From positions 1 through 41,179 of the forward strand of contig JAYZDK010000065.1 of the NCBI GenBank assembly GCA_036337845.1: DNA of 41,179 nucleotides, given 5' to 3'. Origin of the DNA: Myxococcota bacterium. Lineage in GTDB: Bacteria; Myxococcota_A; UBA796; CAJQPC01. The translations under genes were made by a program, and so were the position numbers. Under the pieces are notes generated by a model. The model saw nothing but the letters and a program-made list of their open reading frames with translations. It did no database searches and was not told the origin of the DNA. Shown here in pieces: positions 23,744-28,366 of this stretch (position 1 is its first letter; every line of letters begins with the position of its first letter).

Positions 23744-24472
23744 CTATCTCAATCGTTCGAGAGCACTGGCCACAAGCGCACTTGCCGACTCCGAAGAGGT
23801 CACACTGGACCGTACAGGACTCGGAGAATCCTTCTTGGGAAACACCGTGTTGTGTTTCTCGGTGAGTTGTTCCACCAGCGCGGTCGGCAGCAGCACAGGC
23901 CCACCAAGCTGCCGCGCTACCAAGGCGATCTTGGAGATGTGTTCCAAGAGCTCGATTCGAAGCATACAGGTTTCCAGATCCGGCCCTACCGCCAACACAC
24001 CATGATTGGCCAGCATCACCACATCCGCGCTCTTAAGCGCCAGGGCAAGGGCATCATCCAAGGCCGGCTCCCCAGGCATTCCAAAAGGAACCAGAGGAAT
24101 CTTTGGTCCCAGTGAAACCACAGGTTCAGCCATAAAGGGTGCTCCAAGCTCAACCCCAGCCACCGCAAACCCCGTAGCTGTCGGAGGATGGGCATGCACC
24201 ACACAAGCCACATCGGGTCGCGCTCGATACGCCGCCAGATGAAGCTTGATCTCCGAAAAACTCTTCCGAGTTCCAGCCACCACTGCTCCGGAATCATCGA
24301 CCACGATGAGGTTCTCCGGGCGAACCTGGGCTTTGGAAACCGCCGTAGGCGTAGCCAGAAAGCGACCTTCCCCAAGACGCGCCGTCAGGTTTCCATCGTG
24401 GTTGGCAACCCACCCTCTGGCATGGAGGGCGTGAGAAACATCCACAAGTTCCGCTCGAAGTTTCTCTTCCAT
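23744..24472 (-). CDS. Class II aldolase/adducin-family protein (fuculose-phosphate aldolase-like), BMC-associated
   Basis: DGNLTAR, SEIKLH, VVHAHPP and LANHG metal-binding motifs; C-terminal S/P-rich linker followed by an amphipathic helix. Confidence 0.9.
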   Translation of the reverse strand: MEEKLRAELVDVSHALHARGWVANHDGNLTARLGEGRFLATPTAVSKAQVRPENLIVVDDSGAVVAGTRKSFSEIKLHLAAYRARPDVACVVHAHPPTATGFAVAGVELGAPFMAEPVVSLGPKIPLVPFGMPGEPALDDALALALKSADVVMLANHGVLAVGPDLETCMLRIELLEHISKIALVARQLGGPVLLPTALVEQLTEKHNTVFPKKDSPSPVRSSVTSSESASALVASALERLR

Positions 24473-24475
24473 CGC

Positions 24476-24790
24476 CTAGGAGTGCTCCGACTTGGGGCCG
24501 GGGCCGCGCGTAAGCTCGCCACCCCGATCGATCATGTCGACCACCGCGAGCACCACCGAGTGAAACGGGTCCTCATCGTTGCCTAAAATCTGGCGAGCCG
24601 TATTGCCTTCCCGAGCACACAACACCAGGTCTCCGATACCCGCCTGCACGGCATCTACCGAGACAAAGCTTGCCCCCAGCGCCGATTCACCGTCACTGGC
24701 TACCGGCTGCACCACAAGCACCTTGTGGCCCTCGTAGCAGGGATGCTTGACCGTGGAAACCGAGTTTCCGAGCACGCGGCACAAGATCAT
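24476..24790 (-). CDS. BMC-P vertex protein (EutN/CcmL family)
   Basis: MILCRVLGNSVSTVKH, VDAVQAGIGDLVL, EGNTAR and VLAVVD. Confidence 0.92.
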   Translation of the reverse strand: MILCRVLGNSVSTVKHPCYEGHKVLVVQPVASDGESALGASFVSVDAVQAGIGDLVLCAREGNTARQILGNDEDPFHSVVLAVVDMIDRGGELTRGPGPKSEHS

Positions 24791-25077
24791 TGTCGAATGC
24801 CTCCGGCTTCATCGTCGCCAAAGTAATGGTCCACAATGGTCACCACAGCCACATCCACCGGTGTGAAGGTGTCTGGCAAGGTCAGAGCGGCCTCCCGACC
24901 GGTAACCCACTCCACCGTATCGCCCTCACCGGCTTGCAGAGCGTCTGCAGCCACCAAGGCCGGCCCCATGGGAAATCCATGGTGGTCGTGGGGTTGAATC
25001 AACAGCAGCCGAACCCCCTCAAGTGCTGCATGCTTTTGGGTCGCCACCACCGTACCGAGAACTTTCGCAAGCTGCAT
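24787..25077 (-). CDS. BMC-P vertex protein (EutN/CcmL family)
   Basis: MQLAKVLGTVVATQKH, ADALQAGEGD, GREA and PVDVAVVTIVD. Confidence 0.92.
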   Translation of the reverse strand: MQLAKVLGTVVATQKHAALEGVRLLLIQPHDHHGFPMGPALVAADALQAGEGDTVEWVTGREAALTLPDTFTPVDVAVVTIVDHYFGDDEAGGIRQ

Positions 25078-25655
25078 CAGGACTCCACCTGGAAGGGAGC
25101 AGGCCTCAAGACGAGGCGCATGAAATCCTCATGGGGTCTCGGAATAAGTTCCGAGCGCACAAGGTTGCCACGTTCCATGAGTATCCCGGTGGCCGCCGAA
25201 ATGGCAGCTTCCACATCATGCTGCGGTCCATGAACCACGAAAAACGCCTTGCCCCCAAGTGCGGGTGTAATGCGGATTCCAGCCAACTCCACTCGGGCGT
25301 CCTTGAGGGCTCGGTCACAGGCCTCCAGGGTGGAAGAGATCATCCGCCCCTCAAGGATTCCAAGCGCGTCCACACCTTCACAGTGCTGCTGACCTCCAAG
25401 CGCCGGAACAACAGCCTCGTGCACCAACGGCAGGAACATCCGATCCCTGAGGCTGTCCCCAGCCACCGACATCGCTTCCTCAAAAGCCAGCTCGACCTCA
25501 GCAACCCCACCTGTGAACAAGACGCGGAACACTCCCGGCTCCACGAGGTTGGCCTCCAGAACTTGAACCGGCGCCTTCTTGACCAGGGCATCCACCACTC
25601 GGTAGCCACGTGCGACCGAGGTCAACTCAACCAGTGCGAGGGCGTCTTGGCCCAT
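25077..25655 (-). CDS. BMC-T tandem-domain shell protein (PduT-like, single layer)
   Basis: Two BMC domains (ALALVELTSVARG...; ALGILEG...LGGKAF...IPRPH). Start reassigned to ATG 25655 in a TGATG overlap with the AldDH stop. Confidence 0.9.
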   Translation of the reverse strand: MGQDALALVELTSVARGYRVVDALVKKAPVQVLEANLVEPGVFRVLFTGGVAEVELAFEEAMSVAGDSLRDRMFLPLVHEAVVPALGGQQHCEGVDALGILEGRMISSTLEACDRALKDARVELAGIRITPALGGKAFFVVHGPQHDVEAAISAATGILMERGNLVRSELIPRPHEDFMRLVLRPAPFQVES

Positions 25656-27061
25656 CAAACAATCCGGAAGTAGCCTGCCAGCGTGCAGCGCCTGACCCGC
25701 GTGAAGTCTCGTGCCGTGGTGAGCCCCTCGCCTGTTGGCGATGCGATGGTAAACGACGTGAAGCCCTCCCCCCCAAAGCCCAGGCCCGCATAATTGGAGG
25801 CGTTCTTGATAAAGATAGAGCAGTTGATGACTCTCGCCATCCGGTGAAGCGCATCCAGGTTCTTCGACCACATAGACGCGGTATGGCCGTATCCGTGTTC
25901 TGCTTCAACAGCCTGGTCGATGCCCTCATGCACATCCCGCACACGCGTGATGCCAATCACAGGCATCAACATCTCCAACTGGATGAAGGGATGCTCAAAC
26001 GGCACTTCAGCGATGATCAGTCGAGGGTCTCCCTCGAAAGGAACATCGATCTCACGCAGCATCTTGCCCGCGTCTCGTCCAACCCAGCTCCGGTCAATGT
26101 GCTCACGGTCGGGGGTCAGTAGCAACTTCTCCAGGCGTCTGATCTGGTGGTTGCGAAGCAGAACAGAACCGTTGGCTTGCATCGATTCGATGAGCGGGTC
26201 TGCAATCTTGTCCACGGCCAACACCAGCTTCTCATCGGTGCAGATGATGTTGTTGTCAAAGCTCGCCCCAGCCACGATACCTCGCGCAGCCGCAGCAATA
26301 TCGGCCGTTTCATCGACCACCACCGGCGGGTTACCCGGACCGGCCGCAATGCACTTCTTTCCGGAGTTCATGGCGGCTCGAACCACCTCTCCGCCACCGG
26401 TGACCACAATCAGTCTCACCCCCGGGTACTTCATCAGCTCACCGGCAGAGGCAATCGTGGGCTTCTCCACACAACACATCAAGTTGTCGGGGCCGCCCAC
26501 CTCGATCGAGGCGCGGTTGATGAGGTCGATACAGTAAGCCGAGGTACGACGGGCCAACGGGTGGGTGTTGAACACCGCGGTGTTGCCCCCGGCCACCATG
26601 CCGATTCCATTGCAAATGATGGTTTCTGTGGGGTTGGTACACGGTGTAATCGAGCCAATTACCCCATAGGGGGCCCGCTCCATCAAAGCGAGGCCAGCAT
26701 CACCCGTCCAAGCCACTGGCTCCAGAATCTCGGGACCCGGAGTCTTGTGAATGACCAAGAGGTTCTTCTTGATCTTGTCTTCGACACGCCCCAATCCAGT
26801 CTCTTCATGAGCCATGGTGGCCAACGTGTTCACATCCTCGGCACAACGGCGACGAATGTTGGCAATGATCTCACGGCGCTTTTCCAGAGGCTGATTGATC
26901 AGAATCTGTTGCGCAGTCCGGGCGGCATCTACCGCCTCGGAAACCGTTTCAAACACACCACGCGGCCGTGCAGGCATCTCCATTTTCGCAGGCATCTCAC
27001 CTGCCTGAATCCGAGCGAGCACACGCTCCACAAGGTCTGAGACTTGCTCGCGCTCCATCAC
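25655..27061 (-). CDS. eutE: CoA-acylating aldehyde dehydrogenase (EutE/PduP family), BMC-associated
   Basis: [34 protein letters not shown], catalytic [20 protein letters not shown] and PTGEGLT..F.R.RRC. Confidence 0.93.
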
Positions 27062-27378
27062 ATACCCGCCTCGTCAGCTGGATAGGGAGGCATCTTGTTG
27101 TAGAGCTTCTCCTCACCCATGTCCATCGAATCCACAATGGCCATGACCACCGCATCGACCGGCTTGTTGTTGGTCTGTTCGGTCTGCCGCGCCGAAGAGC
27201 CCGATGCATACAGCACCACCTCTCCAACGCCAGCCCCCCTGACATCTGCGGCAACCACGAAGGAATCCTTGCCCTCCAGCTTGAGGGAAAGATCCTGCAC
27301 GAGGTAGAGCCTAAGCCCCTCGATCTTCGGGTCCTTTCGGGTGGACACGACAGTGCCCACGATCCTTCCGAGCTTCAT
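27058..27378 (-). CDS. BMC-P vertex protein (EutN/CcmL family)
   Basis: [29 protein letters not shown] and [19 protein letters not shown]. Confidence 0.93.
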
Positions 27379-27427
27379 GAGTCCTCCAGAACAAGCTCAC
27401 CCAGTTGGGTGTAGACAACCAGGGTTG

Positions 27428-27724
27428 CTACTTGCCTTTTCTGGCGGCCTGCCGACCCAGAGGAAGAACCTCGTCGACGTTGGCGTGTGGACGCGGAATG
27501 ATGTGCACACTCACAAGCTCACCGACACGCTGCGCTTGTCTCGCGCCTGCTTCGGTTGCTGCTTTGACAGCGGCTACATCGCCACGAACGACCGCGGTGA
27601 CATAGCCACCACCAATCTTCTCGTAGCCTACCAACTCCACACGAGCGGCCTTCAGCATCGCATCCGATGCTTCCACCATTCCTACAAAGCCTTTGGTTTC
27701 GATCATACCCAGGGCATCAGCCAT
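27428..27724 (-). CDS. BMC-H hexameric shell protein (PduA/EutM family)
   Basis: [21 protein letters not shown] pore loop, [10 protein letters not shown] and HIIPRPH; SD AAGGAG. Confidence 0.96.
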
Positions 27725-27736
27725 GAGAGACTCCTT

Positions 27737-28366
27737 CTACTTTTTTGAAACTTCCTGACCGGTCAAGGATTCGACAGCCGCCACCGCAGCCGCTGCAGCC
27801 GAATCAATCTCAGACTCACTCCCGGCCATCCAGAGTCGTCCGAACGCCCCGAACGGGCGAAGATTTACAAGGTTCACGTCAGCGGCCTTCTCCGCCTCGT
27901 TTGCAGCCAGCACCGCATACGCGGCCGGCTCCGTCTCGAGGATGAAGAGGCTCTCGCCTGGAATAATCATCATGCCCTGGCGATTCCGATTGATCAGCTG
28001 GGCCTGGTAGGCCTCGATCGCCCGAATCACGGTGTTCGAGACCACACGGGGCTTGACCCGCTGCGACTCCTCAAGCTCAAGAAAGTCGAGAATGGCCTTG
28101 CCTGCAGAGAGGACTTCTCCCTGCTCATCATGATGGACTTCAAGCAAACCGAATGCACGCTCAACGACCTGGACTGCCGGGACAGAACTGGTGGATTTCA
28201 GCGCCACATCCGTCACTCGGTTGATAATCATACCGGGCGCGGTTTCTACCCATAGAGACGCTTGACCCGCCAAAGGAAGAAACCCCCTACAGGTCGTTCC
28301 CGTAAAGGCAGCCAACTGGGGCTGAAGGGCGTCCAAGAACGCATATGCTCGCAAGGTGACAGCCAT
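27737..28366 (-). CDS. BMC-Tdp stacked tandem shell protein (CcmP/CsoS1D-like)
   Basis: [47 protein letters not shown] and GAFGRL. Start taken as ATG 28366. Confidence 0.92.

Follow-up and report, generated by a model that had tools for sequence, protein, structure and literature searches.

Gene content and shell type of the microcompartment locus

The stretch of DNA analysed here (the window) is the 41,179-nucleotide contig JAYZDK010000065.1 of the Myxococcota bacterium assembly GCA_036337845.1, and it corresponds to contig C65 of the 248 contigs of that assembly, which totals 2.8 Mb and is 78.5% complete. Between positions 23744 and 28366, the minus strand of the window carries a bacterial microcompartment (BMC) operon of eight tightly coupled genes in the order Tdp-H-P-AldDH-Ts-P-P-aldolase (AldDH, aldehyde dehydrogenase), as assigned with Pfam, NCBIfam and gene models read from the sequence. 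The genes are as follows:

28366-27737, minus strand: BMC-Tdp, 209 aa with the ATG start at 28366; shell trimer with tandem permuted BMC domains, of the CcmP/CsoS1D kind
27724-27428, minus strand: BMC-H, hexamer shell protein, 98 aa; Pfam BMC, 1.3e-30
27378-27058, minus strand: BMC-P1, pentamer vertex protein, 106 aa; Pfam EutN_CcmL, 8.5e-28
27058-25655, minus strand: AldDH, CoA-acylating aldehyde dehydrogenase, 467 aa with the ATG start at 27058; Pfam Aldedh
25655-25077, minus strand: BMC-Ts, tandem-domain single-layer trimer, 192 aa, PduT-like; two Pfam BMC domains
25077-24787, minus strand: BMC-P2, 96 aa; Pfam EutN_CcmL, 8.8e-25
24790-24476, minus strand: BMC-P3, 104 aa; Pfam EutN_CcmL, 2.8e-21
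24472-23744, minus strand: class II aldolase (FucA/DrdA-like, metal-dependent), 242 aa with a C-terminal extension; Pfam Aldolase_II (PF00596), 1.1e-44

The tight run of shell, AldDH and aldolase genes described in the initial annotation was confirmed, with all eight genes in place on the minus strand. Four of the junctions are overlaps of 1-4 bases and the remaining gaps measure 3-49 bases. A lipoprotein gene (28520-29092) flanks the operon on one side, in divergent orientation, and a ComEA-like gene (23162-23704) on the other, in convergent orientation. Domain scans of the window proteins detected no alcohol dehydrogenase, PduL, kinase, transporter or regulator within the operon, in agreement with the same annotation. 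A single Pfam BMC domain was scored for BMC-Tdp (E 1.1e-07, open frame 27737-28402), and this protein reached 279.9 bits against the NCBIfam CcmP model, under the model cut-off of 340. The two BMC domains of BMC-Ts were scored in the open frame 25077-25871. For AldDH, an alternative GTG start is found one codon upstream, at 27061; the protein scored 638 bits against the NCBIfam model PRK15398 (cut-off 403), a subfamily that we take to be of the CoA-acylating EutE/PduP kind, and 201 bits against the EutE-type model. Across the whole assembly, the four BMC-domain matches all lie within this operon, its BMC-H is the only one found, and its three BMC-P genes are the sole EutN_CcmL genes. A promoter and terminator scan of the operon region gave nothing beyond chance. 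One of its hits is a short GC-rich hairpin at 27398-27411 (minus strand), within the 49-base gap between BMC-H and BMC-P1, and the regional number of such hits (5, with 4.2 expected) is that of chance.

Three of the shell proteins are closest to those of the Haliangium ochraceum (HO) BMC, in line with the initial annotation. In a sequence search of the PDB, the best solved relative of BMC-Tdp is HO-5816 (E 1.6e-92, gapless across residues 1-203), the best natural solved relative of BMC-H is HO-5815 (E 4.4e-45), and for BMC-P1 it is the BMC-P in 5v74, an HO shell entry (102.9 bits). The resemblance does not extend to BMC-Ts, which is nearer to PduT entries (114 bits) than to the HO BMC-T entry 5dih (70 bits). 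In BMC-Ts, a Glu aligns with the pore Cys that holds an Fe-S cluster in PduT, so that three Glu residues would line the pore of the predicted trimer. Four BMC-domain matches were found in each of three genomes of the genus. H. ochraceum has three BMC-T genes, whereas the window genome, like two near-complete congeners, has two (one Ts and one Tdp); a third BMC-T was found neither in the 78.5%-complete assembly nor in those two genomes. The window genome also differs from H. ochraceum in its small size, with 2.8 Mb assembled at the completeness given above and about 4.7 Mb in relatives of the genus.

The locus is an HO-type "type II" BMC main locus with six shell genes, namely one H, one Ts, one Tdp and three P. 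It shares with the type II loci described in the text of PMC8217296 the BMC-P triplet, the single BMC-H, the HO-5816-like Tdp, the acylating AldDH, the placement of two BMC-P genes and the aldolase beside AldDH in the main locus, and the lack of PduL and alcohol dehydrogenase. Other BMC types fit less well. The class II aldolase, which is the signature enzyme of the PVM (fucose/rhamnose) type, is present in the window locus; however, a lactate/malate-type dehydrogenase, acetate kinase, DeoR regulator and phosphotransacylase (PTAC)/PduL are all absent from it, and the shell is closest to HO. The EUT type differs in its EutB/EutC enzyme, for which no match (PF06751) was obtained in the 78.5%-complete assembly.

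Candidate cargo enzymes within and outside the operon

Both enzymes of the operon have terminal extensions that resemble encapsulation peptides:

27049-26999, minus strand: N-terminal encapsulation-peptide-like helix of AldDH (residues ~4-20), followed by a Pro-rich linker; read from the sequence
23842-23750, minus strand: C-terminal linker and helix of the aldolase (residues ~211-229, Ser/Pro-rich; helix 230-241, ALVASALERL)

Relatives of the aldolase were searched with one genome per species, and the best 80 loci of 475 relatives were kept, with flanks of up to 8 kb, and examined by tblastn with the eight window proteins. The AldDH tag motif, (I/L)VE(R/K)VLxR(I/V), was present in all 34 related loci with a covered N-terminus (38 loci contain AldDH), and the helix ranks 10th of 457 windows in hydrophobic moment. 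AldDH thus looks like cargo, with the N-terminal helix and linker as its predicted tag. The AlphaFold2 model of the aldolase (30-sequence alignment) has a mean predicted local distance difference test score (pLDDT) of 93.5; the core up to about residue 210 scores above 95, residues 211-229 form an unstructured linker (pLDDT 57-72) and residues 230-241 form a terminal helix. Of 76 complete homologues, 65 have a similar C-terminal helix motif and two of the other 11 show the helix by eye; the terminal motif was present in all 14 complete ORFs from loci without a shell gene within 8 kb. Judged by this architecture, the aldolase is very likely BMC cargo, its linker and helix being read as an encapsulation peptide. 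In a permissive motif scan that covered every long open frame of the assembly, convincing tag-like termini were seen only in AldDH, the aldolase and the deoxyribose-phosphate aldolase (DERA) described below.

The aldolase residues E74, H93, H95 and H157 are invariant in 30 homologues and align with FucA-family motifs; we take E74 to be the catalytic Glu (PDB titles of related structures name E73) and the three His residues to be metal ligands. No NCBIfam model reaches its cut-off for this protein (the best scores 109.8 bits, with 250 required). Its best sequence and fold matches are 6btd/6btg, the 5-deoxyribose disposal aldolase of Bacillus thuringiensis (83.6 bits; TM 0.88, 29% identity), followed by FucA entries, including that of Escherichia coli, and YgbL. 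The His ligands and the Glu are conserved in the B. thuringiensis and E. coli enzymes; in contrast, identity to them is 25-29%, and the solved enzymes lack the C-terminal linker and helix, as seen from the aligned ranges. FucA/DrdA relatives cleave a 1-phospho-ketose to dihydroxyacetone phosphate (DHAP) and a small aldehyde. FucA-like, DrdA-like, YgbL-like and epimerase assignments were not separable by NCBIfam, PDB sequence search or Foldseek, and the substrate class could not be decided because the margin among the nearest solved relatives (83.6 versus 78.1 bits) is too small. As a test of a 5-deoxyribose/methylthioribose route, the MtnA/IF-2B family profile was uninformative, matching in 145 of 151 genomes of the order; an isomerase of this kind is present in the assembly too. 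A second class II aldolase (37% identity) is encoded on contig C148 (19624-20226, minus strand; L125:3870-4823), where it adjoins gpsA, and no C-terminal tag region was aligned in it. Many genomes of the order, whether or not they have shells, contain matches at the level of this paralogue (~35-43% identity).

The initial annotation had viewed the operon as a self-contained two-enzyme metabolosome, in which the aldolase is the single, aldehyde-generating signature enzyme and AldDH makes acyl-CoA; any DERA would then be an ordinary cytosolic enzyme. Several observations agree with such a model. Both enzymes are encoded in the operon and have tag-like termini, the metal ligands and the catalytic Glu of the aldolase are invariant, and no further enzyme gene lies between the divergent and convergent flanking genes. 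Moreover, in a sample of 151 genomes evenly drawn from the order of the window, the aldolase (E <= 1e-50) was found in 86 and lies 3.1-7.0 kb from BMC-H in 50 of them. The model is nevertheless at odds with a DERA encoded elsewhere in the assembly.

A DeoC-family search of the assembly produced two matches, on contigs C7 and C60, and none in the window. The C7 match was discarded, being a 357-aa protein that by eye is an FbaB-like class I aldolase. The C60 match is a DERA of 289 aa (TIGR00126, 267.8 bits with a cut-off of 117.3; domain at residues 72-280), with an N-terminal extension of about 71 residues that begins DELEELVDRVARRVRERM. The helix at residues 6-26 ranks first of 279 windows in hydrophobic moment; in the structure model, it is followed by a gap and a second helix at residues 43-57, the whole extension being modelled at pLDDT 32-52. 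The motif (D/E)xLV(D/E)x(I/V)AxRV(R/Q)xR(M/L)QQ, followed by VPP, is kept in 12 family-level homologues and in 17 aligned homologues, and the helix resembles the AldDH tag in motif. D158, K191 and K220 are invariant and match, by motif and without an E. coli alignment, the catalytic D102/K167/K201 quoted in PMC11585597. The DERA gene (deoC) is the first of an operon that continues with deoB (phosphopentomutase), a thymidine/pyrimidine nucleoside phosphorylase gene, nupC and a gamma-carbonic-anhydrase/PaaY-like gene; deoB follows DERA in 10 of the 12 family-level homologue loci.

Extended DERA genes are also found next to shell genes. In seven of the related loci, in which the P-P-aldolase part is split from the AldDH part (L042, L043, L054, L055, L061, L073 and L085), an N-terminally extended DERA is encoded just downstream of the class II aldolase. 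In six of them (all except L061), DERA directly follows an aldolase that lacks a C-terminal helix of its own, which hints that the aldolase may ride into the shell with DERA. A glycerophosphodiester phosphodiesterase gene comes next after DERA in L054, the one split locus that was scanned. Besides these, the few shell-bearing genomes of family f3 carry DERA inside the locus; in genome G099 of this family, the order is DERA-Tdp-Tdp-H-P-AldDH-Ts-P-P, that is, the HO core order headed by DERA, with no class II aldolase in the locus.

BMC domains were detected in 111 of the 151 genomes of the order, and the distribution of DERA follows them. DERA counts were tallied by hand from the searches, a match being taken as extended when it starts at query residue 20 or lower or when the N-terminal piece lies on another contig:

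DERA match covering the extension: 92/111 shell-bearing genomes; 1/40 shell-less genomes (an 83%-complete genome)
Strong DERA match (E <= 1e-50): 104/111 shell-bearing genomes; 1/40 shell-less genomes plus one fragment

The remaining shell-less genomes have only weak DERA matches of 33-39% identity. An extended DERA is also present in 81 of the 86 genomes with the aldolase.

The operon is therefore not self-contained, because the distribution of the extended DERA (contig C60) follows that of the shell genes across the order, and the proposal of a two-enzyme metabolosome could not be upheld. An ordinary cytosolic DERA would be hard to reconcile with the conserved extension of about 71 residues, which is of the kind described for BMC-associated DERAs (PMC11585597), with its tracking of the shell (92/111 versus 1/40) and its place inside split-type satellite loci, or with the sister family, in which the same shell core occurs with DERA and, in G099, without a class II aldolase in the locus. 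We consider the two-enzyme model unlikely. As for the aldolase, its role as a likely tagged cargo enzyme stands, while the claim that it is the single signature enzyme is weakened by the shell-tracking DERA.

Proposed function of the compartment

We propose, with modest confidence, that the locus encodes an HO-type metabolosome near SPU5 that turns the aldehydes of deoxynucleoside sugars into acyl-CoA, with DERA as a third tagged cargo enzyme supplied in trans. Deoxynucleosides would be imported by NupC, phosphorolysed and isomerised in the cytosol to give deoxyribose-5-phosphate, which DERA inside the shell would cleave into glyceraldehyde-3-phosphate and acetaldehyde, and AldDH would trap the acetaldehyde as acetyl-CoA. 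The class II aldolase would be the second encapsulated enzyme, most likely cleaving a ketose-1-phosphate into DHAP and a short aldehyde for the same AldDH. With neither PduL nor a luminal alcohol dehydrogenase encoded, acyl-CoA, CoA and NAD(H) would have to cross the shell or be recycled in another way. The more general claim is that the HO BMC is a deoxynucleoside/DNA-sugar catabolic organelle from the SPU line, whose signature DERA resides in a nupC-deoA-deoB operon and is recruited by its extension of ~70 residues, and whose aldolase pairs with DERA or feeds the same dehydrogenase. It agrees with the order-wide result that DERA is almost confined to genomes also having the shell; we hold it only tentatively, as a serious possibility that falls somewhat short of being probable.

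Published work on the SPU type offers a close parallel. According to the text of PMC11585597 (Commun Biol 2024), all SPU-associated DERAs have an N-terminal extension of ~70 residues that includes an amphipathic helix and is absent in non-BMC DERAs; this extension causes tag-typical aggregation, and its removal makes the enzyme soluble. In the same source, SPU5 is described as lacking ribose-5-phosphate isomerase (RPI) and as having a Tdp, an AldDH with an N-terminal tag and a class II aldolase with a C-terminal one. The window genome resembles SPU5 in its extended DERA, N-tagged AldDH, C-tagged class II aldolase, Tdp, BMC-P triplet and absence of an extended RPI. It differs from SPU5 in that DERA is encoded outside the shell locus, heading a nucleoside operon on another contig, and in that the window operon has no PduS homologue, which is present in two related loci (L087 and L088). 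The lack of an N-terminally extended RpiB sets it apart from SPU types in general, though not from SPU5, for which the same lack is described (PMC11585597).

For the HO type itself, Sutter et al. noted in 2021 that an extended pfam01791 enzyme is encoded elsewhere in some HO genomes and could be HO cargo, with an SPU-like role in nucleic acid catabolism being plausible, and that HO AldDHs are closest to those of SPU5 and SPU7 (PMC8217296). The result obtained here extends that suggestion, made in one sentence of their catalogue. The statement from 2024 that DERA is restricted to SPU loci among BMCs (PMC11585597) needs qualification too, since the split-type satellite loci with DERA depart from it, provided that they are HO. 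HO shells, the main structural model in the field, see wide use in structural and engineering work, and the function of the native compartment has been called "enigmatic" (PMC8217296). With the extended DERA encoded in trans in a nucleoside operon, the HO compartment acquires a cargo list and a substrate that can be tested, and a possible function near that of SPU5. A search of the full-text literature found no paper testing the function of the HO BMC, the supplementary tables of PMC8217296 and PMC11585597, which may list part of this, lying outside that search.

Several points weigh against the proposed role in deoxynucleoside catabolism. Encapsulation, activity, substrates and fluxes are inferred, from gene content, tag-like architecture, co-occurrence and operon contexts that were observed directly. 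The aldolase fits no curated family, its nearest solved relatives differing only marginally. NAD+ regeneration is not accounted for. Since the assembly is 78.5% complete, the absence of PduL, EutB and a third BMC-T is provisional, and the two near-complete genomes of the genus agree with it in PduL absence and in the number of BMC domains. As for the co-occurrence, a single family (f3) accounts for 38 of the 40 shell-less genomes, so that the contrast represents few independent events among genomes that are kin. There are also 19 of the 111 shell-bearing genomes without a match to the extended DERA: three have N-terminally cut matches, six have DERA inside a different type of locus, three belong to genus g18 and seven lack a strong match, five of the latter (59-90% complete) having no match at E <= 1e-10. 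Finally, the model of the DERA extension is of low confidence (pLDDT 32-52), and in genus g18, which has 0-1 weak BMC match and no HO-type aldolase, DERA keeps up to ~41-45 in-frame upstream codons in the two of four genomes checked (G018 and G076; loci L135 and L136). Genus g18 was considered as a natural control for loss of the extension and found not to be clean, as the upstream codons could hold a different short helix.

A rival explanation for the link between DERA and the shell is phylogenetic inertia, in which the DERA extension has another role, such as oligomerisation or regulation, and the substrate of the compartment is unrelated to nucleosides. With nearly all shell-less genomes in one family, the two-by-two table amounts to few events; the low confidence of the modelled extension and the short extension that g18 may keep with almost no shell genes point the same way. 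On the other hand, DERA lies physically within BMC loci in two further arrangements of the same phylum-level group, its helix resembles the AldDH tag motif, and in the published SPU DERA the extension leads to tag-typical aggregation (PMC11585597). These findings make inertia an improbable explanation.

We also searched for further enzymes that could belong to the pathway. PduL (PF06130) was detected neither in the operon nor in the rest of the assembly, as a genome-wide search suggested by the initial annotation showed, nor in two genomes of the genus that are 95-96% complete. Its absence thus holds genome-wide in the genus, and the question of CoA and NAD+ recycling therefore stays, as it does for incomplete-core metabolosomes. 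Across the order, PduL was found in 67 of the 151 genomes with no tie to the shell (2/33 in family f7 and 27/46 in f3), in open frames of ~600 aa. These PduL domains are mostly in the largely shell-less family f3, and the proteins look like fusion proteins unrelated to the compartment. The search for an alcohol dehydrogenase elsewhere in the genome did produce one clear iron-dependent enzyme (Fe-ADH), on contig C59 (L008), but it is untagged and lies beside an unrelated enzyme gene, with no link to the compartment; its gene overlaps the end of an ORF of 384 aa whose product resembles, by eye, a thiamine-diphosphate enzyme. The FGGY kinase of the assembly is GlpK. Triosephosphate isomerase (TPI), RpiB and a Pta-domain protein were rejected as tagged cargo, being without extensions: the only TPI found is that of an ordinary pgk-tpiA gene pair, and the single RpiB match is a 175-aa open frame with no room for an extension of ~75 residues. 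No PduS homologue is present in the operon, to which the search for PduS was confined.

These results bear on a joint pathway, in which the glyceraldehyde-3-phosphate released by DERA and DHAP would be condensed by the class II aldolase to a hexose bisphosphate that exits through the gated Tdp pore. This hypothesis has been stated for SPU subtypes with Tdp (PMC11585597). DERA, the aldolase and Tdp do occur together in HO genomes, with an extended DERA in 81 of 86 aldolase genomes, and the six split loci in which an aldolase without a C-terminal helix precedes an extended DERA would fit a physical pairing of the two enzymes. However, the untagged TPI means that DHAP would have to be imported, and the aldolase is a member of the FucA/DrdA family (PF00596) rather than of the fructose-bisphosphate aldolases. 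Its closest solved relatives, moreover, work in the direction of cleavage, from 1-phospho-ketoses to DHAP and small aldehydes. We regard the joint pathway as quite unlikely, and prefer acyl-CoA formation from the aldehydes released by DERA and the aldolase.

Arrangement of the locus among relatives

The initial annotation had stressed that two HO gene clusters, separate in H. ochraceum, are joined here in one operon. The arrangement was already described by Sutter et al. as "type II HO", in a catalogue with HO-like loci in 40 other genomes (PMC8217296), and it is the commonest form among the relatives found here. The 80 related loci were divided as follows:

Joined order: 38/80 loci
P-P-aldolase without AldDH in 2.5 kb or more of upstream DNA (split): 18/80 loci
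No shell gene within flanks of up to 8 kb ("lone"): 16/80 loci
P-P-aldolase, locus cut by a contig end: 5/80 loci
Arrangement not assignable: 3/80 loci

In the order-wide sample, the position of BMC-H relative to the aldolase was:

Same contig, 3.1-7.0 kb apart: 50/86 genomes
Same contig, 10.9-23.8 kb apart: 8/86 genomes
Different contigs: 22/86 genomes
BMC-H not among the matches listed: 6/86 genomes

Because the joined form is published and is the most frequent one, the consolidated arrangement is already the norm among HO-type loci, which the initial annotation had itself named as a result that would speak against its proposal. The locus as such is ordinary for its lineage, in which 111 of 151 genomes have BMC domains. 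In a quick tree of the aldolase (77 rows, namely the window aldolase and 76 of the 80 loci, with four omitted as cut or short), joined loci fall in most clades and split loci in about three.

The "lone" loci could not be taken as truly shell-free, since a Tdp-to-P3 block was found 7.7-12.7 kb away on the same contig in all five that were followed up (L102-L106, from genomes G001-G005). In these, a stretch of this length interrupts the HO locus between P3 and the aldolase. The interrupting genes, not all of which are present in each locus, encode an ABC transporter (an NMT1-like binding domain fused to OmpA, a permease and an ATPase), a ParA-like ATPase, a glyoxalase and an acyltransferase. They lie mostly on the opposite strand and were not taken as pathway genes; the ParA-like gene could encode a positioning ATPase. 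Insertions in other related loci were likewise examined for clues to the substrate, and none of them (rhomboid-domain, DsbA-like, PduS-like and unknown genes) points to one. A rhomboid-domain protein, with TPR repeats in some copies, is encoded between P3 and the aldolase in L058, L072, L074 and L078, and a DsbA-like gene is inserted at the same place in L082 and L084. The PduS-like gene (Complex1_51K, SLBB and 4Fe-4S domains) lies between AldDH and BMC-Ts in the joined loci L087 (5224-6594) and L088 (5282-6622).

Some of the surroundings of the window operon are also found elsewhere. The ComEA-like gene downstream of the aldolase is kept in L017, L018 and L021, and in L018 and L021 it is adjoined by a metallo-beta-lactamase gene, as in the window. 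Farther from the operon, positions 17175-20012 of the window (minus strand) encode a protein of 945 aa that contains nine putative metal-binding motifs of the MopE-like kind (5e-72) and a stretch of fibrinogen C-terminal domain; a similar protein, with MopE and FG-GAP matches, is encoded near the aldolase in L027. Among the nearest loci (within L012-L091), many come from metagenome-assembled genome records labelled Enterobacterales, Klebsiella or Alphaproteobacteria, labels that look like mislabels; these loci are nevertheless of the Myxococcota type and cluster on the tree with records labelled Myxococcota.

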